Shown piece after piece: positions 4,266 through 15,387 of a stretch of DNA of 64,000 bases; position 1 is the first letter of the stretch; each line of letters begins with the position of its first letter. The position numbers and the translations under genes were made by a program. Under the pieces are notes generated by a model that was not told where the DNA came from, made no database searches, and saw only the letters and a list, made by a program, of their open reading frames with translations. The stretch is from an uncultured Desulfobulbaceae bacterium (GTDB lineage Bacteria > Desulfobacterota > Desulfobulbia > Desulfobulbales > BM004), in assembly GCA_947259115.1 (NCBI GenBank), contig CAMYKS010000010.1:41236-105235 (forward strand). The letters are read 5' to 3'.

Positions 4266-4856
4266 TTAAAAATAACCGGCTGGAGCTGTCTTCAACAAAG
4301 TCCTGACCAGTTTAAGGGTTACCTGGTAGGAGTCATCGGCTTTGAGGCCTAACAATCTCCTGCCAAATGATTCGCCGCTTAAGTTCCCGGAAGCCTGCCA
4401 CAGGATCAGGCCAGAATTGACCTCTAATAACCTGAGAGTCAGGGCCATTTCCGGATAATCGGAGCTTCCTATCCTGCCGGTCCCGGCAAGGTCAATGGTC
4501 CCGAGGATGACTGCCTGGGTATCCAGGCGCTGACCTATCCTTTTCAGGGTCAAGGGGTCAATTGGAGCTCCTCTTTCAACACCCTCCTCATAAAGTACGT
4601 TGTCAACCAGCACCTTTTCCACGGTGTCGAACAATCCCAGTTCCAGAACCTGAGTAATGGTGACATCCCGGGCCCGTTCAGCGGCAAAAGTATCCGAACT
4701 GTTATTCTCAAAGGGAATGACCGCTATGCGTTGAATAAAACCGAAATCCACCTCTTCCCGCACAAACGATTTTGTTACCGCTCTGCCGCCGCAGCCGGTG
4801 AGCAAAAGAACCCAAAATAGTAAGCACCCATAGAATACCAATTTTCGCATGATCAT
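4266..4856 (-). CDS. lipoprotein with CsgG/LpoB-like alpha/beta domain (paralog 3 of 3)
   Basis: Signal peptide plus lipobox LLTGC. Motifs IAVIPFENN .. AVILGTIDLAG .. LTLRLLEVNSGLILWQ. Its stop lies 9 nt before the start of the next gene. Confidence 0.55.
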   Translation of the reverse strand: MIMRKLVFYGCLLFWVLLLTGCGGRAVTKSFVREEVDFGFIQRIAVIPFENNSSDTFAAERARDVTITQVLELGLFDTVEKVLVDNVLYEEGVERGAPIDPLTLKRIGQRLDTQAVILGTIDLAGTGRIGSSDYPEMALTLRLLEVNSGLILWQASGNLSGESFGRRLLGLKADDSYQVTLKLVRTLLKTAPAGYF

Positions 4857-4998
4857 TCCCCTTATAACGTTTTATGCAATTATAATTCCTGTTTTGCAAA
4901 TAACAATGAAATAACTCATTATTTTTTTTAAAGTTATGTATTTAGGCCCAAAAAACATCAACTGTCCCCACTTGCAACAAAACTTCACGCCTGACCCA

Positions 4999-7062
4999 TT
5001 AATCGGGTTTTGTATAATGATAGTTCAAGCGTGCCTGAAAGCTCCACTGGTCATCTTCCTCTTCAGTGATCCCGTAATTACCGGACAAATTAAAGTTGAA
5101 CACGGGATTGATCAACCAACTCCATATGCCGGTGAAAAAGTGATCCGTATCATCCTGATGGAGTAAATTGTATGACAGTGTGACCCTGTTCTTCCTGTTG
5201 GGCGCAATTCCCAGTTCAACCCTGTAAGCGGTTGATGTATCAGATTCGTCACCCCAGTCAACAATCAATGTATTATTGACATACATTATTTCGGACAAGC
5301 GCCAGTTCAGGGTTGCATCATTCCTATGGGCATCGGTGTTGTCATCGAGATCCCTTGAAAATCTCTGATCCAGAGTGAATATCAGGGAGGGTCGCAACCG
5401 GGCGGTTAGTTGCAGCCTTTCTGAAAAGGTATCAGTCCGGAAGCCTTCACGTGCATCGGTATAATTCAGGTCGAGTGAGCTGTCGAGGTCATCATAGAGC
5501 TGGGCTGTGGCATTAAAGCTATAGTTATTGTAGCGCTCATACAGATCACTGTCCTCATAATTTTCATTTCGTGTAGCACCCAGGCTTACATCCAGGGTAT
5601 CAAGGGGTGAACTGCTTAAGGACAGGCCGTATCTCCGGTACTTCTTCTCCGGGCGCTCATCGGGCATGTCCCTGTTTTCACTTGCATTTATCCTGGCGGC
5701 AAAATACCTCCCCGGCGACCAGGTCAGCGCACCGTTATTATCTATGCGCTCCCGGTCATCTGCAGCGGAGTTTTCCTGCCTGTCATAGGAGAAGTTATAG
5801 TTGAAGCGCAGGTTCTGCATGAGCTGATAGGCAAGGTTGAAGCGGCTCTGGTATGTCTCCCTGATTATATCATCATCAATACCTGACCCTCCCTCTTCAC
5901 CAAATATCTTACGGAACAACTCCATGGCAACAATCTCGGTAACCTGCGTGGGCAGCAGGCTGCCTGTGTCTGCCACAAGTTTCAGCCAACGCTCATCCAG
6001 GCTGTCCACCTCAAATTCAAAGCGCTGCTCCAGGTCATCGTAAACAAAGGGCAGCGAGGCTTCCTCCAGTACCCAGTCGATGCCATTGTCACTGCTGTAG
6101 AGATCCCAGGAAAAATTGGAGGCAAATTCATCAATCTCATTCTGGGCAGTCAGATAAATGACATCAACCTGCTGAAAATCGCTGTTGACGCCAAGGTTCA
6201 TGGGTTCATTTGCCGGTTTTATTTCCAGAATGACCGGCGGGTCTTCATCAGTCAGGAGAAAGGAGGCATCGTTGGTCAGGGCCCCTGTCAGCGGATCAGT
6301 GGTCTCTTCATAGGATGCCTGGGAAACTATGGCCGGCAGCAGGGCGAAACCACCTTCTCCGGTCCGGCCGGAAAAAGAATTTTTATTGTGCAGGTAGTTC
6401 AGGGTAAGGCCGAGGCGCAGCCGCTTGCTGAAGAGACTCTGGGCCGCTCTCAGGCCGGCACGCTGGGTGAGGTTTTCGCTTTCAATGTCGTTTTTCTCGA
6501 TGGCATTGTCCCGATTCCAGTCGAAACTGTAGTAAAGGCTCATCCAGTTCCAGTAGGCCCAGCCCACGCGTCCGTCGGCAAAATCTATACGGCTTGTGGT
6601 TTCCGAATCTATTTTGGCGCCCCTCTGTCCGTAAGACATGGACATGGTCGGTAAAGACCGGTTTATCCAGGAACTCCCCAGGCGGCTGGACCAGAACCAG
6701 TTCTCACGATCATCGTTTTTGGAATCCGTCCTGTAACTGTAATTACCGTAGAGGCTGAAGCTGTATATATCGTTGAAATTATTCAGGGTAAGGGCTGGAG
6801 AGATGATATCACTGTCGTAGTCTTCTTCAATACGCTTGGAGTAGCGCAGGCTGCCGTCCATAGTTATATTATCCGTCAGGTCTGTCCTGCCGCTGTAGCT
6901 GGCATTATAATTCTGGCGGAAATCGCTATCCTGGTCCTTGCTGTCAGCGTAGGACCACTGGCCGTTAAGGCTCAATGCGCCTGCTGCCGCACCATGCACC
7001 CCACACTGGCTGCACAGAAGTACTGCACAGAAAAGCCTCAGAAGTTTTGCAAGGACTCTCAT
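4999..7062 (-). CDS. predicted outer-membrane beta-barrel protein with a central soluble (jelly-roll/discoidin-like) insert
   Basis: The ORF runs to 7152, but Met at 7062 starts a plausible signal peptide (MRVLAKLLRLFCAVLLCSQCGVHGAAAGA). The composition is rich in N/D/S/Y, with many alternating amphipathic strands (YSFSLYGNYSYR, LRLGLTLNYLH, RFNYNFSYD, RVTLSYNLLH). A middle segment of ~130 aa (..FSWDLYSSDNGIDWVLEEA..ERWLKLVADTG..) is not barrel-like. Confidence 0.55.
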   Translation of the reverse strand: MRVLAKLLRLFCAVLLCSQCGVHGAAAGALSLNGQWSYADSKDQDSDFRQNYNASYSGRTDLTDNITMDGSLRYSKRIEEDYDSDIISPALTLNNFNDIYSFSLYGNYSYRTDSKNDDRENWFWSSRLGSSWINRSLPTMSMSYGQRGAKIDSETTSRIDFADGRVGWAYWNWMSLYYSFDWNRDNAIEKNDIESENLTQRAGLRAAQSLFSKRLRLGLTLNYLHNKNSFSGRTGEGGFALLPAIVSQASYEETTDPLTGALTNDASFLLTDEDPPVILEIKPANEPMNLGVNSDFQQVDVIYLTAQNEIDEFASNFSWDLYSSDNGIDWVLEEASLPFVYDDLEQRFEFEVDSLDERWLKLVADTGSLLPTQVTEIVAMELFRKIFGEEGGSGIDDDIIRETYQSRFNLAYQLMQNLRFNYNFSYDRQENSAADDRERIDNNGALTWSPGRYFAARINASENRDMPDERPEKKYRRYGLSLSSSPLDTLDVSLGATRNENYEDSDLYERYNNYSFNATAQLYDDLDSSLDLNYTDAREGFRTDTFSERLQLTARLRPSLIFTLDQRFSRDLDDNTDAHRNDATLNWRLSEIMYVNNTLIVDWGDESDTSTAYRVELGIAPNRKNRVTLSYNLLHQDDTDHFFTGIWSWLINPVFNFNLSGNYGITEEEDDQWSFQARLNYHYTKPD

Positions 7063-7234
7063 GGTGTTGTTCGCGGATGTTCCTCTTTGAATTCCCTCAT
7101 CACCCCTTGCAGCAATGCTGCTCCACCAACCGGATACTCCGTAGCACAGCACGGAAAAAGTGCACTGTAAAAAATGTTTGCCGGGTCATGCGCTCAGTAT
7201 ATTTACTGCTGCTGCAGAGACCGGTCAGCCTGCA

Positions 7235-7279
7235 TAAAAATCTGGCCCCTCGATGAACTTTTCTTGATCACGAGGGGCC
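7235..7279 (-). terminator. intrinsic terminator downstream of the OmcS-like gene
   Basis: The minus strand reads GGCCCCTCGTGA-loop-TCATCGAGGGGCC followed by AGATTTTTAT. The stem has 9+3 bp with one bulged T and is followed by a T-run, 57 nt after the stop codon. Confidence 0.7.
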
Positions 7280-7335
7280 AGGTTAAGACCACATCAGGCC
7301 TTATGCATGGTTATGCAGCGTAACACTGCAAAAAT

Positions 7336-8409
7336 TTACTTTGTTGTGTGGCACACAAAGCATCCATCCGTACCGCCAGTGCCTGCATCCATGAGGCCAT
7401 AGGACCAGCGCAGCATATCGGCATAGGGCGATCCATGGGCCCGGTGGCACGAGGTACAGACAACGATGTCGTCGCCTGCAGCCACCGCAGAGAAGCTGAG
7501 GGAGCCTGCGCCTGTTGTATTGGTGCCGACCGGGGACTGCACCTCATAGGTGACATAGGCTGCATACTCAGTGCCTGTGGCAGCACTCAACTGGAAATCG
7601 GTGGGATGGCGTCTCCAGGGTGAAGCACTACCGGCACCCAGATCCGTTGCAGGAACGTAGGTGCCGTGGAAATCACCGTGGCATAGGTTGCAATGCGCCT
7701 GGAAGGTATCTGAGGAACCTGTTGCCGGAGTTGCATCACCATAGTAAGCGTTATGGTCGTCGGAAGCATAGGTGAACTCCCAGTCCCCATTCTCACCGCC
7801 CTGGATATAAGAGGCCCCACCACCACTCAGAAAACGGTAACTGGCGCCCCTGCTGGAACCATCGGCCCAGCCGTCGGTATCCGTTGAATAGGTGCTGCCA
7901 GCATTGTAATGATGCGCACCGCCGATATGACAGCTCTCGCATTCAATTAAGTTGCCGCTAAAATTCGTGCCAACTGTGTTTCCCGGGGGTTCGCTCAGGG
8001 TTGCGTCGGGACTGGCTACACCAACAACGTTGTGCCCCTTGTTATCCTCAGCATCACCGGAGGTAGCAACCCAATAGAAATTTCCACCGGCTAGCGTAAT
8101 ACCAGTGTTACCTGTCTCGTCATAGGCTGGGTCTGTAGTGTGCAGAACAATGGGCGCGCTCCACTGGGCACTGACCGCGCCGTCTCCCGCATCACCGGTG
8201 TGGCAGGCCACACAACCGGCTACCCGCAGCAGGTAATTCTGCGCCTGAGTGGTGCCCACTGTCATGTGTGTACCATCCTGGCTGTTGTGCATGGCGTGAC
8301 ATTTGTTGCACAACCCCACCATGACTGCATCCGCCGTGCCCTGGGCCAGCAGAAATACCCCGGTGGCCATAGCACTGCAGAGTAAAGTCCTTGTTAGCAA
8401 TTTTTTCAT
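7336..8409 (-). CDS. omcS: OmcS-family hexaheme c-type cytochrome (candidate nanowire subunit)
   Basis: 357 aa with a Sec signal (..AQGTADA|V) and six CxxCH motifs at C34, C66, C157, C240, C318 and C350. Colinear blocks match my recollection of G. sulfurreducens OmcS: CNKCHAMHNS, GGNFYWV, NKGHNVVG, YRFLSGG, CNLCHGDFH, RRHP, CTSCHRAHGSPYADMLRW and C-terminal CFVCHTTK. A strong SD (AGGAGG) precedes the ATG. Confidence 0.85.
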   Translation of the reverse strand: MKKLLTRTLLCSAMATGVFLLAQGTADAVMVGLCNKCHAMHNSQDGTHMTVGTTQAQNYLLRVAGCVACHTGDAGDGAVSAQWSAPIVLHTTDPAYDETGNTGITLAGGNFYWVATSGDAEDNKGHNVVGVASPDATLSEPPGNTVGTNFSGNLIECESCHIGGAHHYNAGSTYSTDTDGWADGSSRGASYRFLSGGGASYIQGGENGDWEFTYASDDHNAYYGDATPATGSSDTFQAHCNLCHGDFHGTYVPATDLGAGSASPWRRHPTDFQLSAATGTEYAAYVTYEVQSPVGTNTTGAGSLSFSAVAAGDDIVVCTSCHRAHGSPYADMLRWSYGLMDAGTGGTDGCFVCHTTK

Positions 8410-8601
8410 TCCACCCTCCTACTCAAAATTCGTTGTCTCTTGTGAAGCGGTGAGGACTGATCCCCTCCCAGCTTCGCCGCTCTTCCTAAAATTAGTTAGT
8501 ATCTACCGTAAATAACCACCTGATGCAACTGGAAATAATTTTCTTTCTTGTTTAATTTTCATTTTGTGTTTAGTGGCATATATAAAGTCATTCTATCTAT
8601 A

Positions 8602-8617
8602 TGCAATTATTGCGCCA
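8602..8617 (-). promoter_or_regulatory. candidate sigma54 (RpoN) -24/-12 promoter for the OmcS-like gene
   Basis: The minus strand reads TGGCGCAATAATTGCA against the consensus TGGCAC-N5-TTGCW. The GG-N10-GC spacing is exact. It lies ~190 nt upstream of the ATG at 8409. Confidence 0.5.
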
Positions 8618-8733
8618 CAAGCAACGAAAAATACGTAACAAAAAGTTCCTAGTCATATAGCATCCAGTCAGCCCTTGTACAATCAACGGTTCATCCCTTG
8701 CAAAATTTTATTGCAAAATTCCATGGAAACCTC

Positions 8734-8758
8734 GCCCATGACAAAGATTGTCATGGGC
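8734..8758. promoter_or_regulatory. perfect 11-bp inverted repeat, candidate enhancer-binding (UAS) site or terminator hairpin
   Basis: GCCCATGACAA-aga-TTGTCATGGGC. It lies ~120-150 bp upstream of the sigma54-like element and 85 nt downstream of the NHL gene stop. No T-run follows on either strand. Confidence 0.3.
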
Positions 8759-8842
8759 TGCACATTGAGCCGCCCCCCAAATTGACAAAAAATGTCACAT
8801 ATTGCCGCAAAATGTCACACATGGAGTGTGCACCATACTCTT

Positions 8843-10885
8843 TCATGGGACATCCATTACCTGCACCCTGTGGTTGAACATATCGGCCACAATAACGTTG
8901 CCGCGCCGGTCCACTGCAATATGGGACGGAAACTGAAACCAGCCTTCAGACAATCCCTGCCCCCCGAACTCAAGCAGATATCTGCCGTCCTTATAGGTAT
9001 AGGCATTGATGGCATGCCGCATGTAATCTACGACGTAGATGACCTCCCGGTGGACATCAACAGCAATGCTCCTCGGGTTGCTGAGCTTGCCGGTGGACCC
9101 TCCCAGTTCACCAAAGGCAAAGAGGAAATTCTCATCCCTGTCGAGCACGAAAACGCGGCCGGCAATATTGGCGAGGATGTATATCCTGCCCTTGGTATCC
9201 ACCACAACATCCTCCACCTTGAGTGCGCCGGGGTGGCTGGGATCATTGCCCATCTCTTCACTCACGCCGCCTACCTTCAAGGGTACGAGCCAGCGCTTGA
9301 AATTTCCTTCCAGGTCAAGCACCAGCACACCTTTTGCGCCATTGCCGGATATATAGAGCGTATCATTGCCAGGACCGAGGGCCATGTTCTGCGGCACAAA
9401 ATTACCAGCAATACCGGGAATTTCAGCAAAGAAAATATCACGCACTTTAAAAAATGCAGCGTTGAGCACCCTGATCATCGGCGCTATCCTGGTTCCTGCA
9501 TCATCACTGGTTTCTCCCTGGGCCACATAAATATTCCCCTGCTTATCAACTGTCATTCCCATGGGATTACTGATTCCCCTACCCGGGCCAAGTGCGGCCA
9601 CGGGAAAATAGTCCTGCCCGTAAATTGTCACCCTGGTATTTACCTGGCCGCCGGAACTGAGCATATATATCTCATCCATGAACGGGTCATAGTGGACCTC
9701 TCTGGGGAAAGAAATTCTTCGGTCATAGATGTCCCGGAAAAAAACCTTGACCACCCGCACAGGAGACAGGCCGCTTGGCTGACCCCGCTTGGCGAATTTC
9801 TCACCCTGGTCAAAAATATCGGCTCCAGGGGTGTCCGTGCCTTCGTCCGCATCCTTTAGGTCCAGCAGGGTGGCAGTTTCCTGCCGGGGCACAACAGCGG
9901 CAGTGGTAACTGCTGCATCGTCTGCCTTGTTCGGCTGGGCTGCATCTCCCATGGACGCTCCACCGGCCTGGCCCCCTTCTGCAACGGTCTCAAAGGACCC
10001 GTCCAGTTCACCGCTGCTTTCCTCAAGCTGTTCGTCCGCAAGAGCATCCGGGGCTACCAAGGCAACAGGAGCCGGAACCAATTCCGCCGCAGATTGATAC
10101 TGTCTGGATATGCGCTCTGCCTTGATGTATGCCTGCAAAATGTTGGCGCCATCAAGGGGCTCCCCAACCGTTCCAAGGAATGCATCCGCGTCTGCCAGGC
10201 TCTCAAATCTGCCGATTCTGACAGTATGGTACCCCTGTACCTTCTCTATGCGCAGATGATCACGCTGCGTTTCCCGTAATGCTTTTACCAGAAACTGGTA
10301 TTTTTTCTCAGCAGCATCTTCAATGCTGTAGCTGCCCACCTGGATTGTATAGTACTCCTGCTGCTCATTGAAACCGGTTGCAAAATTTGTTGTTGGTGCA
10401 AGGGTTTCAGCCGCTGTTTCTTTTTCAGGAGAAACCGGCAGAATATCATTTACCGATTTTTTCGGGACTGATGCGGTATCCTGGCTAAGAGGCAGAGAAG
10501 CCTCTTCGTGCAAAACAGGTTCATATAATAAGGATATTCGCTCGGGCTTGTTATGGGCTTGCAGAATAAGGGCCCCGGCAAGGGGTTCACCGGCTGCCCC
10601 AACTATCCGATCTGCTTCGCTCCATGAACCAAACCTGCCAAGCCTTACTGTATAGTAGCCACCCACCTTTTCAACACGCAGGTAATCCCGCTGATCAGGC
10701 GCAAGACTCTCAGCCAGGGAATGGAATAACCTTGTTGCAGGCGGTTCCTGGCTGTAGCTTCCGGCTTGGATTGTATGGAACTGCGAAAGATCTGCGGCTC
10801 CGGCAGATGAATGGAACAGGAAAGGTGTCAGAAAAAAGAGGAGGAGGTAAATTGAAAAATGATATGAAATTATTCTAAATTTCAT
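8843..10885 (-). CDS. secreted SPOR-SPOR-NHL-repeat beta-propeller protein
   Basis: The ORF runs to 10936. Met at 10885 has a GAGGTG SD and starts a signal peptide (MKFRIISYHFSIYLLLFFLTPFLFHSSAGA). There are two SPOR-like repeats (FHTIQAGSYS..YYTVRLGRFGSWSEADRIV and YYTIQVGSYS..YHTVRIGRFESLADADAFL), then an Ala/Glu-rich linker, then NHL repeats (..LSNPRSIAVDVHREVIYVVD.., ..PSHIAVDRRGNVIVADMFNHRVQVMD). It contains no CxxCH. Confidence 0.75.
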   Translation of the reverse strand: MKFRIISYHFSIYLLLFFLTPFLFHSSAGAADLSQFHTIQAGSYSQEPPATRLFHSLAESLAPDQRDYLRVEKVGGYYTVRLGRFGSWSEADRIVGAAGEPLAGALILQAHNKPERISLLYEPVLHEEASLPLSQDTASVPKKSVNDILPVSPEKETAAETLAPTTNFATGFNEQQEYYTIQVGSYSIEDAAEKKYQFLVKALRETQRDHLRIEKVQGYHTVRIGRFESLADADAFLGTVGEPLDGANILQAYIKAERISRQYQSAAELVPAPVALVAPDALADEQLEESSGELDGSFETVAEGGQAGGASMGDAAQPNKADDAAVTTAAVVPRQETATLLDLKDADEGTDTPGADIFDQGEKFAKRGQPSGLSPVRVVKVFFRDIYDRRISFPREVHYDPFMDEIYMLSSGGQVNTRVTIYGQDYFPVAALGPGRGISNPMGMTVDKQGNIYVAQGETSDDAGTRIAPMIRVLNAAFFKVRDIFFAEIPGIAGNFVPQNMALGPGNDTLYISGNGAKGVLVLDLEGNFKRWLVPLKVGGVSEEMGNDPSHPGALKVEDVVVDTKGRIYILANIAGRVFVLDRDENFLFAFGELGGSTGKLSNPRSIAVDVHREVIYVVDYMRHAINAYTYKDGRYLLEFGGQGLSEGWFQFPSHIAVDRRGNVIVADMFNHRVQVMDVP

Positions 10886-10986
10886 TGACACCTCAAGCGA
10901 AATAACAGGTGAGCAGCTGTATTGCAAACTGCCCACCTGGGATATATGAAAAGATTAACTCAACATGACATGCTGCGATAAAGCAC

Positions 10987-11002
10987 TGCAATAATCAAGC
11001 CA
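10987..11002 (-). promoter_or_regulatory. candidate sigma54 -24/-12 promoter for the SPOR-NHL gene
   Basis: The minus strand reads TGGCTTGATTATTGCA, with correct GG-N10-GC spacing. It lies ~100 nt upstream of the ATG at 10885, in the gap after the dodecaheme gene. Confidence 0.4.
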
Positions 11003-11080
11003 TTGCCACTGCCCAAGTACAAAAACAAGATCTGACCTGTCAGTATACCCTCACCCCCAGTCCGTAACAAGGCTTAAATG

Positions 11081-11941
11081 CTATTTCTGAATATCATGGG
11101 CAATGCCATGGCATGCAGCACATTCCGCATATTTCTTATGAATAGAAGGATTATGCGGCTCGCCGTGGCATTCCTGGCAGGCGGGAATCCTGCCGTGTGA
11201 TGCATGACACTCGGCACAGGTCAAAGCTGAGTGCTTTGTCACACGTGCCTGTAATAACTGGTAAGCCTCATCGTGACAACCAGCACAGACTTCCTTGCTC
11301 TGGGTAATGGGATAGGAGATGCGAAGCGGCGTATGTACCGGGTGGCAGGCCAGACAATCAGGCGTTGCAAGTTGTGCCATGGGGCTGTGATTCTCATGGC
11401 ATTCAGCACATTGGGGAATACGGCCGTGTTTTTCCGAATGACAGGAGGAGCACTCCTGCTCTGTATGCATGCTCACCTCTGCCATAAGGCTTGCTGCAAC
11501 CTCGGTATGGCACAGTTTACAGCGCCCTTCAAGAGATCCGGGATCAGGAATGGAAACCAATGGCTTGTGGGGGTTGGCGTGGCATTCCAAGCACTGCATC
11601 ACCGGTTCCGCAGACCCGTGGGGTGCATCATGGCAGCTGGAACATTTGGGCATAATCGCCCCGTAATTATTGCGCAGTGGGTTATAGGCATGAAAGACCT
11701 CGTGGCATTCGGTACAGGCTACTGTCTGGTGCCTGGCGCCATTATCGCGCAGCCAATTGTAGTGTGTCGTATGGCAGCGGGCGCAATCCTCCAATGTCAG
11801 AGGCTGCACCGCTATAGTGTAAATACTGCCCTCAACCGTTTCAGCAGCAGCAGATTGGCAAAAGAAAAATGCTGCAAAAAGAATAAATGCCGGTGTGGTC
11901 ATTTTTACCAAACTACAATTGATTGTTTTTTTTCTTGCCAT
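11081..11941 (-). CDS. dodecaheme c-type cytochrome (GSU1996-like polymer of c7-type triheme modules)
   Basis: 286 aa with a signal peptide and 12 CxxCH motifs (CARCH, CTECH, CSSCH, CLECH, CKLCH, CSSCH, CAECH, CLACH, CAGCH, CAECH, CQECH, CAACH). There is an internal repeat, ..HGRIPxCxECH.. An SD (AGAGGTG) precedes the ATG. Confidence 0.9.
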   Translation of the reverse strand: MARKKTINCSLVKMTTPAFILFAAFFFCQSAAAETVEGSIYTIAVQPLTLEDCARCHTTHYNWLRDNGARHQTVACTECHEVFHAYNPLRNNYGAIMPKCSSCHDAPHGSAEPVMQCLECHANPHKPLVSIPDPGSLEGRCKLCHTEVAASLMAEVSMHTEQECSSCHSEKHGRIPQCAECHENHSPMAQLATPDCLACHPVHTPLRISYPITQSKEVCAGCHDEAYQLLQARVTKHSALTCAECHASHGRIPACQECHGEPHNPSIHKKYAECAACHGIAHDIQK

Positions 11942-11986
11942 GCCGCACCTCTTGTTTTTTCAGATATTTAACGGTAAAAATTTCAT

Positions 11987-12028
11987 AAAAAAAAATGGCA
12001 GGAGAGCCGATGATGCAGCTCCCCTGCC
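11987..12028 (-). terminator. intrinsic terminator between the two dodecaheme genes
   Basis: The minus strand reads GGCAGGGGAGC-loop-GCTCTCCTGCC (10/11 bp stem) followed by A and T9. It lies 14 nt after the upstream stop codon. Confidence 0.65.
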
Positions 12029-12041
12029 ATTGCGCAATGTC

Positions 12042-12839
12042 TTATTTAACCAGGAAATGCGCGTCCAGATGACAGTCTAGACAGTTGGGCATTTTCTGAT
12101 GCATAAATGACGAGTGGGGTTCGCCGTGGCAGGTCTGACACTGGGGCACATTGGGATGCTGCCCCCGGTGGCAGAAGGCACAGGTAAATGTCTGGTGCTT
12201 GGTCACGGTTTTTTCCAGCTGCTCGCCGACTTCCTCATGACATGGCACACAGAAAGCCCTCTGGGTGGTCATCGCATAATTAATTTGCAGCGGATGATGT
12301 GCAGGGTGACAGCCGAGGCAGTCACTGGTCAGTTGGCCTTCCGCGTGGGGCTCATGACAGTTGGAGCAATCGGGGATCTTGCCATGCACCTCGTGGCAGA
12401 AGGTACATGACTGCTCTGCATGGGCACTGGCGAAATTGGCAAAATCCTGCCCCGGGCCTTCATGGCAGGTGAGACACGGCTCTTTAATATCATCGGCAAG
12501 GTTCAGGGCCAGGGGTTCATGGGGATTCGAATGACAGGAGAGGCAGTTTTCCAGTTCAAAATGCGACCTCCCTTCATGGCACATGGAGCATTGCGGAATA
12601 ACTTCTTCCCCCCAGGGCGGATGCTCCTGGTGACAGTCCAGACAAGTAACAGCGGTCTGATGCTTGCCGCCGTTGCTGGCTATTGAGGCCGGCGCATCCT
12701 GGTGACACTTGACGCAGTCCGCTAAATCCAGAGAGGTCAGTTCTGCTTTTGCCTCACTGGGGAAAACAGCCAACATGGCAGCTGCAACGACAACTGCGCA
12801 GAGAAAACCAAATAAAGAATATCCTTTTTTTTCCATCAT
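12042..12839 (-). CDS. dodecaheme c-type cytochrome, tandem paralog
   Basis: 265 aa with a signal peptide (..VFPSEAKA) and 12 CxxCH motifs (CVKCH, CLDCH, CSMCH, CLSCH, CLTCH, CTFCH, CSNCH, CLGCH, CVPCH, CAFCH, CQTCH, CLDCH). Its module spacing matches that of the 11081..11941 product. Confidence 0.9.
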   Translation of the reverse strand: MMEKKGYSLFGFLCAVVVAAAMLAVFPSEAKAELTSLDLADCVKCHQDAPASIASNGGKHQTAVTCLDCHQEHPPWGEEVIPQCSMCHEGRSHFELENCLSCHSNPHEPLALNLADDIKEPCLTCHEGPGQDFANFASAHAEQSCTFCHEVHGKIPDCSNCHEPHAEGQLTSDCLGCHPAHHPLQINYAMTTQRAFCVPCHEEVGEQLEKTVTKHQTFTCAFCHRGQHPNVPQCQTCHGEPHSSFMHQKMPNCLDCHLDAHFLVK

Positions 12840-13185
12840 TTTAACACCCCTTTATCCTCCGGAAATATTAACTTGTCATACGAATATCTTTTCATAAAAA
12901 ATAATGAATGGAGTTTCATTATCAGACTATGTCTGCCTTTGTCAAGTGTTAAAAAATGTTCACTATTCTTCCGAAGCAGCTTCATCCTCCCAGCCTGACC
13001 TTTTTCCTGCGCACTCATCGGGGTGACACTGAAATAATTCTGTTCAGAGAGCCATCAGCCCATACGACTTTCCTTTGACTTAACATGCCCCGCCTCCTAT
13101 TATAGTGAAATTACATGGACAGTATTCATAGCTGAATAGTAGTATCCATACTATAGGGCATCTTTATTGTTAAAGCCACCATCGC

Positions 13186-15387
13186 ATGAAGATCACTGGA
13201 AAAATATTTACCACCAAGACCTGGGCATTTCTGCTTCTGCTTTTTGCCGTCTCTTTAGTATATTCCAACACAATCCATGCCCCTTTTACCTTTGATGATG
13301 CCCAGATTGTCGATAATTATTTCATCCAGATCACAGATATTACCCCGGAAAATTTACAGCAGATTGCCACCCTGAGTCCAAACAAGCGACGCCTGCTGCC
13401 GAATATTTCCTTTGCTCTTAACTATTACTTTGCCGGCTACAACGTTATTGGCTTTCATCTGGTCAATATCCTCCTCCATATTGGCGTAGGATTTTCCTTT
13501 TATCTCCTGGCCCGAAAAACCCTGGGGCTGCTGCCTGCATCCCTGATCACCGGGCGCAAAGCTGAGATTGCGCTGGCGGCAGCACTGATTTGGGCCCTCC
13601 ATCCCCTGCAGACTAACGGTGTTACCTACATTGTCCAACGCATGACCTCCATGGCAAGCCTTTTTTTTCTGCTCTCATTGCTGTCTTATATCAAGGGCCG
13701 AACTGTCAAAAATGGTATGAGAAAGATATTCTTTTTCCTGTCTGCTTTTGTCCTGGGCACCATGGCTCTGCTGAGCAAGGAAAACAGCGGCATGCTGCCC
13801 GTGATGATCGTCGGTTATGAGTTCTTTTTTTTAAGGCCAGCGGATGCAAACAGAAAAGAGCGGCTGAAAATCCTTGCGGCTGCAGGAGTCCTGTTCATTA
13901 TTTTTGCCATTATATGCTGGACCTTTTTGGGCAGCGACCCACTTAATGCCATTGTACAAGGTTACGGTCGCAGAGATTTCACCCTTTACCAGAGACTTTT
14001 GACCCAAAGCAGGATCGTAACCCACTACCTGTCCCTACTGCTCCTGCCGCTTCCTGCAAAACTCAACCTGGCCTACGACTTCCGGCTCTCCACCGGGCTT
14101 CTGACACCGATCCAGACATTTCCTGCTATAATTTTTGTTACCGCGCTGGCAACTCTCATTTTCCCGTTATACAGACGTGACAGGCTGACAGCTTTTGCTT
14201 TTTTCTGGTTTCTGGGAAATCTTTTTGTGGAATCAACGGTCATTCCCCTGGAACTTATTTTTGAACACCGTATGTATATGCCCTCCATGTTTCCTATCCT
14301 GGCAGGCACTTTCTGGTGTTACAGGATTTCAGGAACAAAAAACTGCAGGATTCTGCTGCTTGTCACATTATCTTTCCTGGCATTATTCACCTGGCAGCGC
14401 AATACTGTCTGGCAGAGCGAAATCAGCATCTGGACCGATATTGTCCAGAAATCGCCTGCATTGCCGAGGGCGTATGTCAATCTGGCAAAGGCATACGGAG
14501 AAAAAGGCGAGCATGAGAGGGCTGAAACCTTACTGCTCCAGGCCAGCAACATTGCTCCTGAAGACGTTCACACATTACTCAGCATGGGAGCTGCGCTGGA
14601 AAATTTGAATCGGCATGCGGAAGCACTGGACTTTTATAGGAGGGCTCTTCAGCAGCAGGGAATCGATGAGGCAAAGGCTCACAGGAACCTTTCCGGGCTT
14701 TACCTGAGGATGAATACATTCGATAAGGCCCTTATCCATGCGCGTGAAGCCAACAGGCTTAACCCTTATAATTATGAAGCCTTTATCCTGCTGGCTGCAG
14801 CCTATTTCAAATCCGGCAACCTGCTCCAGGCAGAGCGCACCTTAAAGCAGGCCCTTGGCCTTTTTCCTGCAAAGGGGGATATTTACGTACAGCTGGGAGT
14901 CATCCATGAACACCAGAACAGGCTTGCTGAAGCTGTCAATATGCTGAAAATGGGGCTCGCCTCCAGAGAGGTTGACCGGGCCAGGGCATACAATACCCTA
15001 GGCATTGTCCACTGGCGGCAGCGTAATTATTCCCTGTCAGTCACGGCAGCTCAAAAGGCCATTGAGATCAATCCGCAGCTTGTTGATGCATACCTGACCC
15101 TTGGTATCACGTATGAAGACATGGGTCACCGGGACTTAGCTCTGCAGCAGTTCACCCGGGGGTGGCAGCAGGGCCTGGATGTTGTTGGGATATTTAATGG
15201 CTGGGCCATGAATTTTCTTAATTCGAACCAGGCTGACAAAGCAGAATTTTATTTGCTGGAAGCCATCAAGCTTGAACCGGGCAGGCCGGAAAGCCACGAC
15301 AATCTTGCCTCTGTTTACCAGGTAAAGGGCATGAGCGCACAGGCGCACAAGGAAAGGGAGATTGCAAGGTCCCTGCGAAACCGTTAG
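13186..15387 (+). CDS. TMTC/PMT-like GT-C membrane protein with C-terminal TPR array (putative protein O-glycosyltransferase)
   Basis: 733 aa with a multi-pass N-terminal half. It carries an acidic first-loop motif (APFTFDDAQIV) and a DUF1736-like motif (LHPLQTNGVTYIVQRMTSM). The C-terminal half consists of TPR repeats. Confidence 0.6.
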   Translation: MKITGKIFTTKTWAFLLLLFAVSLVYSNTIHAPFTFDDAQIVDNYFIQITDITPENLQQIATLSPNKRRLLPNISFALNYYFAGYNVIGFHLVNILLHIGVGFSFYLLARKTLGLLPASLITGRKAEIALAAALIWALHPLQTNGVTYIVQRMTSMASLFFLLSLLSYIKGRTVKNGMRKIFFFLSAFVLGTMALLSKENSGMLPVMIVGYEFFFLRPADANRKERLKILAAAGVLFIIFAIICWTFLGSDPLNAIVQGYGRRDFTLYQRLLTQSRIVTHYLSLLLLPLPAKLNLAYDFRLSTGLLTPIQTFPAIIFVTALATLIFPLYRRDRLTAFAFFWFLGNLFVESTVIPLELIFEHRMYMPSMFPILAGTFWCYRISGTKNCRILLLVTLSFLALFTWQRNTVWQSEISIWTDIVQKSPALPRAYVNLAKAYGEKGEHERAETLLLQASNIAPEDVHTLLSMGAALENLNRHAEALDFYRRALQQQGIDEAKAHRNLSGLYLRMNTFDKALIHAREANRLNPYNYEAFILLAAAYFKSGNLLQAERTLKQALGLFPAKGDIYVQLGVIHEHQNRLAEAVNMLKMGLASREVDRARAYNTLGIVHWRQRNYSLSVTAAQKAIEINPQLVDAYLTLGITYEDMGHRDLALQQFTRGWQQGLDVVGIFNGWAMNFLNSNQADKAEFYLLEAIKLEPGRPESHDNLASVYQVKGMSAQAHKEREIARSLRNR

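Follow-up and report, generated by a model that had tools for sequence, protein, structure and literature searches.

What switches on a gene that appears to code for the subunit of a cytochrome nanowire, and is this gene controlled together with its neighbours or apart from them? The question is raised by a stretch of 64,000 nucleotides (nt) from an uncultured Desulfobulbaceae bacterium (contig CAMYKS010000010.1, positions 41,236 to 105,235; the whole stretch is called the window from here on), in which the gene for a six-haem c-type cytochrome of the OmcS family is preceded, reading the minus strand, by an intergenic gap of 433 base pairs (bp). A first-pass annotation of the window had placed in this gap a sigma-54-type promoter, a palindrome and several direct repeats. 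We compared the gap with those of related loci and conclude that it is very probably a real, conserved sigma-54 (RpoN) control region with an enhancer, which would answer to an activator of the NtrC type encoded outside the window.

Probable promoter and enhancer elements in the gap

The -24/-12 element, TGGCGCAATAATTGCA, lies at 8617..8602, where it had been annotated, and has a single mismatch to the consensus TGGCAC-N5-TTGCW, together with the exact GG-N10-GC spacing that is expected of sigma-54 promoters. In total, 169 loci encoding relatives of the cytochrome (1.36 Mb) were fetched, and eight of them (L161, with 65% protein identity; L162, 56%; L164, 50%; L163, L167 and L169, 48%; L168, 47%; and L140, 36%) made up, with the window, a comparison set of nine loci. 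An intergenic gap is present upstream of the cytochrome gene in all eight related loci. The DNA of these gaps is not alignable between loci except for two blocks, the -24/-12 element and the palindrome, both of which are kept in all nine. The consensus of the first is tT.TGGC.ca..a.TTGCATa.t (core TGGC-N7-TTGCAT), always with exact GG-N10-GC and with a spacer that is free to vary, and this supports the earlier reading of the site as a sigma-54 promoter. At up to two mismatches, ca. 0.02 sigma-54 matches would be expected per region of 350 nt. An unbiased k-mer count pointed to the same two elements, the only 6-mers common to at least eight of the nine upstream regions being TGACAA, TTGTCA, GTGACA and TTGCAT. 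The annotation had also predicted that the promoter motif, if functional, should be conserved upstream of orthologs, and such conservation was found in 8/8 of the related loci with a gap.

The same tendency was seen at the level of the whole family. Among 177 non-redundant upstream regions of OmcS-family members (350 nt each), sequences with at most one mismatch to the sigma-54 consensus were found 10 times in the sense orientation, once in antisense, and 0.49 times in shuffles; with at most two mismatches, the numbers were 24, 6 and 3.98, respectively.

The second conserved block is the palindrome TGACA-N5-TGTCA. The inverted repeat that had been reported at 8734..8758 is indeed perfect, with 11-nt arms (8734-8744 and 8748-8758) and 3 nt between them. 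The direct repeat of AAAATGTCACA was also found (8789-8799 and 8809-8819, copies 20 bp apart), but it is the same motif as the palindrome and not the separate element that the annotation had taken it for. Both repeats are copies or halves of one motif, so that there are three sites in the window (Table 1), the third of which, a degenerate one, is centred 195 bp upstream of the -24 GG. Over the nine loci, we found 16 TGACA-N5-TGTCA sites, one to three per locus and with the consensus TGACAaaattTGTCA, all of them centred 117-208 bp upstream of the -24 GG, i.e., by position, where an enhancer bound by a sigma-54 activator would be expected (ca. 80-200 bp). The distance from one site to the next is mostly 20-23 or 44 bp; both 20 and 44 bp occur in the window, and L164 has 29 bp. 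The 6-N5-6 dyad geometry is that of classical NtrC-type sites, and the window has the hallmarks of an upstream activator sequence of this family, that is, dyad sites in at least two copies and, judging by the spacing, on the same face of the helix. The recurrence of the core at such distances from the promoter in all nine loci favours the proposal, already made in the annotation, that the palindrome serves as the upstream activator sequence. A search for the palindrome in other places had been recommended as well. In the window, the exact motif TGACANNNNNTGTCA has two copies, which are both in the gap; the 1.36 Mb of fetched loci contain 12, of which 11 are upstream of the cytochrome genes compared here. 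No regulator that binds TGACA-N5-TGTCA was found in the literature on PilR, on Desulfovibrio response regulators or on sigma-54 regulomes.

From the order and geometry of these elements, we infer how the gene would be turned on. RNA polymerase with sigma-54 would wait as a closed complex on TGGCGC-N5-TTGCA (8617..8602), while an NtrC-type enhancer-binding protein, encoded elsewhere and responding to some signal, would bind as dimers to two or three of the palindromes, with centres at 131, 175 and 195 bp from the -24 GG, ca. two and four helical turns apart. Once bound, the activator would oligomerise, loop the DNA and open the promoter using ATP. The transcript is predicted to start near 8591, ca. 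12 nt past the GC, and would begin with a leader of ca. 180 nt, in which a conserved stem-loop precedes a strong ribosome-binding site; the cytochrome would be the only encoded protein, and the transcript would end at a conserved GC-rich terminator (7284..7234). In such a scheme, the filament subunit would be switched on apart from the neighbouring assembly genes, as pilin genes are, and it probably has its own signal-dependent on/off switch. Motif regular expressions found no gene for an enhancer-binding protein or rpoN in the 64 kb of the window, and a tblastn search of the window with four such proteins also found none (best E = 0.5), which bears out the claim that the activator is not encoded there.

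Hairpins, a second promoter or chance as alternatives

Several observations weigh against a sigma-54 control region. Over the whole window, the sigma-54 consensus with at most one mismatch is matched 4 times versus 3.49 expected; this is the chance level, and the match in the gap by itself therefore proves nothing. Three of the four are inside long open reading frames (ORFs), and TGGCGCAATAATTGCA is the sole intergenic match in the correct orientation. Its -24 block reads TGGCGC, with G for A at position 5, and departures from TGGCAC at positions 5 and 6 are seen in the related loci, too. A canonical site for IHF (WATCAANNNNTTR) between enhancer and promoter is absent in 8/9 loci, the window included, and the presence in the genome of rpoN and of the activator gene, neither of which has a copy in the window, is assumed. 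To these points must be added the hairpins and the sigma-70-like pattern discussed below. Given the chance-level count and the fact that short repeats are common in AT-rich DNA, the motifs might be fortuitous matches without function in an AT-rich spacer. We regard this as extremely improbable, since both motifs are kept in position and order in nine loci whose flanks are not alignable, and it is contradicted also by the k-mer count and by the excess of sense over antisense matches (10 versus 1). The observation exceeds chance because related loci conserve the elements.

The palindromes could instead work chiefly as RNA, folding into terminator or stabilising hairpins where the NHL transcript ends, and not as protein-binding enhancer sites, with a promoter that could still be of the sigma-54 type. 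This has some plausibility, even if we consider it on the whole rather doubtful. In five of the nine loci, one site lies inside a much longer perfect palindrome with arms of 10-16 nt (window, 8734-8758; L161, 1313-1335; L162, 2842-2874; L167, 3787-3819; L169, 990-1018), and the outer arms differ in sequence from locus to locus (GCCCA... in the window, GTTT... in L161), i.e., they show compensatory change. The palindrome of L162 has 16-nt arms that start 4 nt past the stop codon (folding free energy, dG, -18.5), that of L167 has arms of the same length (dG -21.4) and is followed by GTTTTGG, and that of L169, with 13-nt arms, forms a hairpin that passes the terminator scan. Such arm extensions, being compensatory, suggest that a hairpin, perhaps at the 3' end of the NHL transcript, is also under selection. 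However, the TGACA-N5-TGTCA core is kept in sequence, not just in pairing, down to 36% protein identity; 11 of the 16 sites lack extended arms, and the sites are arranged as phased arrays of two or three. The window copy can form a stem (dG -13.6) but has no T run and fails the terminator scan, which found no terminator-like site in 8300-8950, and the terminator that does follow the cytochrome gene in this lineage is GC-rich with a T run, unlike the palindrome. The annotation had named a terminator hairpin of the NHL gene as its alternative; the hairpin part of it gains from the extended arms and from the L169 copy, whereas the terminator part does not fit the window copy, nor does either part account for the conserved core. 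Enhancer and hairpin roles may coexist.

Another possibility is that transcription starts from a weak sigma-70-like site, TTGCAT-N17-TAGATA, with the TGACA palindromes as operators of an ordinary repressor or activator. The site is present at 8528..8500, as the annotation had it, but is weak, matching TTGACA/TATAAT at 6/12 positions, with A at position 6 of the -10 in place of the final T. A consensus scan that required at least 9/12 matches and, within the -10, an A as second and a T as sixth base, found no sigma-70-type site in the region. A similar pattern, TTGCAy-N17-TAnAnA, is found 119-170 nt before the ATG in five of the nine loci (the window, L161, L162, L167 and L169), where it might serve as a weak additional promoter or as a further binding site, and this is what can be said for such a start. 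The pattern is missing from L164, L168, L163 and L140, all of which keep GG-N10-GC; where present, it lies at anything from 23 to ca. 100 nt from the sigma-54 element, and >210 bp separate it from the palindromes upstream, more than classical activation or repression would allow. We therefore hold this alternative to be quite unlikely, and the reading of the gap as a sigma-54 promoter with an enhancer is preferred. The tandem repeat of TTGCAAAATT that had been annotated between them is present in the window, at 8698 and 8711, but is absent from the related loci compared; an intrinsic DNA bend at this repeat is possible.

The cytochrome gene and its transcription unit

The controlled gene belongs to a large family, with more than 1,800 relatives found. 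A profile built from 34 of them matched OmcS, which forms the nanowires of Geobacter (PDB 6EF8), with E = 2.1e-24 over residues 8-348, i.e., near full length; the single sequence gave no OmcS match against the PDB, and the family profile was needed. The protein has six CXXCH motifs. Their six histidines are all invariant, as are 11 of their 12 cysteines, the twelfth, C240, being nearly so. The invariant CxxCHxMHNS includes a His that aligns with His16 of OmcS, a ligand between subunits. By homology, the cytochrome is thus a reasonable candidate for a nanowire subunit. As deposited, the protein (P0001, 344 amino acids) is 13 codons shorter at its start than the reading frame from the ATG at 8409 (window 8371-8409, minus strand); the longer form, of 357 amino acids, is favoured by the conservation of the ribosome site AGGAGGGTGG and by the related loci.

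The gap follows a gene with a 3' end like that of the NHL gene of the window in seven of the eight related loci, L163 having a different context. This upstream gene is annotated as NHL only in L167; the ORFs of L161, L162, L164, L168 and L169 end in similar sequence with no family assignment, and in L140 an NHL-repeat gene ends directly before the cytochrome gene.

Table 1. Features of the regulatory gap and of the two genes that border it (window coordinates; a dot marks features without strand)
Feature	Position	Strand	Remarks
Intergenic regulatory region, 433 bp	8410-8842	minus-strand reading	Between the SPOR/NHL-repeat gene and the cytochrome gene
Predicted sigma-54 -24/-12 element TGGCGCAATAATTGCA	8602..8617	-	GG 8616-8615, GC 8604-8603; GG-N10-GC spacing
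Putative enhancer site 1, promoter-proximal, core TGACAAAGATTGTCA (8739-8753)	8734..8758	.	Inside perfect palindrome with 11-nt arms; centre 131 bp upstream of the -24 GG
Putative enhancer site 2, TGACAAAAAATGTCA	8783..8797	.	Centre 175 bp upstream of the GG, 44 bp from site 1
Putative enhancer site 3, degenerate, TGCCGCAAAATGTCA	8803..8817	.	One good half-site, 2 mismatches to the core, 20 bp from site 2
Tandem TTGCAAAATT repeat	8698..8723	.	Between enhancer and promoter; copies at 8698 and 8711
Weak sigma-70-like TTGCAT-N17-TAGATA	8500..8528	-	Possible secondary promoter
Predicted 5' leader, ca. 180 nt	8410..8591	-	From promoter position
Conserved leader element, purine-rich block GGAAGAGCGGCGAAG then stem-loop	8438..8492	-	Base GAAGC 8475-8471 paired with GCTTC 8448-8444; interior varies between loci
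Shine-Dalgarno sequence AGGAGGGTGG	8411..8420	-	Conserved in 7/9 loci; ATG at 8409
OmcS-family six-haem c-type cytochrome gene, 357 amino acids	7336..8409	-	Controlled gene; family profile
Predicted intrinsic terminator, stem CTGGCCCCTCG/CGAGGGGCCAG then ATTTTTAT	7234..7284	-	55-94 nt after the cytochrome stop codon
SPOR/NHL-repeat gene	8843..10936	-	Upstream neighbour; its stop codon bounds the regulatory region

The annotation had expected a leader of ca. 180 nt before a strong AGGAGG Shine-Dalgarno sequence. Its elements are in place, and a start ca. 12 nt past the GC would indeed give this length; the predicted leaders are 180-240 nt in seven loci and shorter, at 72-90 nt, in the other two, L163 and L140. 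A conserved element was found in the leader of the window and of six relatives (L161, 1613-1676; L162, 3131-3188; L164, 1165-1217; L167, 4100-4156; L168, 689-746; L169, 1308-1363). It consists of a purine-rich GGAAGAGAGGTGAAG located 77-84 nt before the ATG, a stem-loop based on GAAGC/GCTTCA, an A-rich stretch and the ribosome site. All 47 pair cells of the stem are standard pairs, four pairs changing on one side (G-U type, which fit the sense-strand RNA only) and one on both. The covariation among the seven sequences is compatible with the stem and not significant (86/500 shuffles), and the folding z-scores are unremarkable. A covariance model of the leader (R1) scored 50 bits in the window and, over the 1.36 Mb, matched only its seven seeds, with no further copies, so that the element is seen only in this subclade. 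No riboswitch or leader RNA of Rfam, GEMM-I included, was matched in 7000-13500 with E values up to 1. The hairpin may possibly stabilise the mRNA or bind a regulator.

At the other end of the gene, the consensus scan missed the terminator because its loop has 18 nt. A stem of the same kind (GGCCCCTC/GAGGGGCC) is also present in six related loci, 54-111 nt past the stop codon, and is followed by a T run in four of them, L162 and L168 having T-rich tails only. With a terminator after the cytochrome gene, the unit formed by promoter, leader, coding sequence and terminator is probably monocistronic.

Known systems and the rest of the OmcS family

The closest analogue to the arrangement described here is pilA under PilS-PilR, in Pseudomonas aeruginosa, Geobacter sulfurreducens and Myxococcus, in which the major subunit of an extracellular filament also has its own sigma-54 promoter with several upstream activator sites, and its control is separate from that of the assembly genes. 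TGTC repeats occur in PilR sites, too, a trait for which the PilR papers covered gave no confirmation. In the window, by contrast, the subunit is a six-haem cytochrome instead of a pilin, the putative enhancer is made up of 15-bp dyads (TGACA-N5-TGTCA), and there is no kinase/regulator pair nearby.

The genes between 204 and 17370 of the window code for a peptidyl-prolyl isomerase, lipoproteins, an outer-membrane barrel, the OmcS-like cytochrome, the NHL/SPOR protein, two c7-type multihaem cytochromes and two TPR proteins, in this order. This neighbourhood resembles the Geobacter osc (omcS companion) cluster, and omcS itself (GSU2504 of G. sulfurreducens) belongs to the same protein family as the window cytochrome. 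We take the osc genes to be of the same types as the window neighbours, with an NHL-repeat gene next to omcS. The osc operon codes for proteins involved in folding (OscH), secretion (OscE, OscF and OscG) and morphology (OscD) (PMC13194489). In a study of the G. sulfurreducens RpoN regulon, GSU2504 is not mentioned in the main text (PMC2725144), and omcS has been listed among the genes with GEMM-I riboswitch elements (PMC10599522). In contrast, no Rfam riboswitch was matched around the gap (7000-13500), and a putative sigma-54 promoter with enhancer is found instead. A bolder idea is that genes for OmcS-type nanowires have a control module of their own, built in layers. In it, the palindrome would also form the hairpin or terminator at the 3' end of the upstream assembly gene, coupling read-through and activation, and the leader stem-loop (GGAAGAGNGGNGAAG and then the GAAGC/GCTTC hairpin) would be a new regulatory RNA, possibly in the role of the cyclic-dinucleotide riboswitches of Geobacter omcS. 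We consider this unlikely.

Cytochromes of periplasmic or extracellular electron transfer are known targets of sigma-54 activators, and respiratory cytochrome genes turned on by a dedicated sigma-54 activator, as proposed here, have been described before, i.e., cbcBA, controlled by BccR in Geobacter (bioRxiv 10.1101/2021.04.15.440034), and ohc, controlled by DVU3142 in Desulfovibrio vulgaris (PMC4641369). They differ in that the activators adjoin their targets, which are inner-membrane or periplasmic complexes and not a filament subunit. The general layout is that of glnAp2 of enteric bacteria, where NtrC acts by DNA looping from at least two dyad sites (6-N5-6) located 100-150 bp upstream of the -24/-12 element. 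Its sites are TGCACC-N5-GGTGCA versus TGACA-N5-TGTCA here, and the target in the window is unrelated to nitrogen control. No paper linking an OmcS-family gene to a sigma-54 promoter was found, within an incomplete coverage of the literature. What we describe is, then, a known kind of element, a sigma-54 promoter with enhancer, newly placed before an OmcS-family cytochrome gene.

The triggers of cytochrome nanowire production are largely unknown outside Geobacter and poorly understood within it. As in pilus systems, the subunit gene probably forms a transcription unit with tight limits that excludes the assembly genes, and the 15-bp enhancer motif provides a handle to find the activator and thereby the signal that induces nanowires in uncultivated sulfur- or metal-cycling bacteria; judging by the source names of the best protein matches, these appear to be Desulfobulbales.

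Sigma-54 control appears to be recurrent in the OmcS family, with lineage-specific activators and different enhancers in each lineage. An enhancer-binding protein gene is located directly upstream in L006, L011 and L154 and, more weakly, in L036, L040 and L131. In these distant relatives (L006, ca. 4600-6000; L011, ca. 4500-6000; L154, ca. 1300-2775; L036; L040; L131), the adjacent activator gene carries GAFTGA and GESGTGK motifs, and the cytochrome gene has its own sigma-54-like promoter. The OmcS-family gene of L076 carries TGGCATATTTCTTGCA at 148 nt upstream of its ATG and, ca. 100 bp further upstream, two tandem CTGTGTGAAATCACACAG palindromes, a different enhancer (ca. 5739-5780 and 5852-5867 cover both elements), and its activator is presumably different from that of the window. 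The activators adjacent to other family members were considered as regulators of the window gene and rejected on the grounds that the enhancers differ (e.g., CTGTGTGAAATCACACAG in L076). In L165/L166 (9148-11077, 45% identity), the end of the NHL gene runs into the cytochrome gene, with no intergenic promoter region between them, from which it follows that the separate sigma-54 unit would be lineage-specific. Many genomes (L017, L035, L045, L076 and L077) have OmcS-family paralogues side by side, in tandem arrays of two to four.

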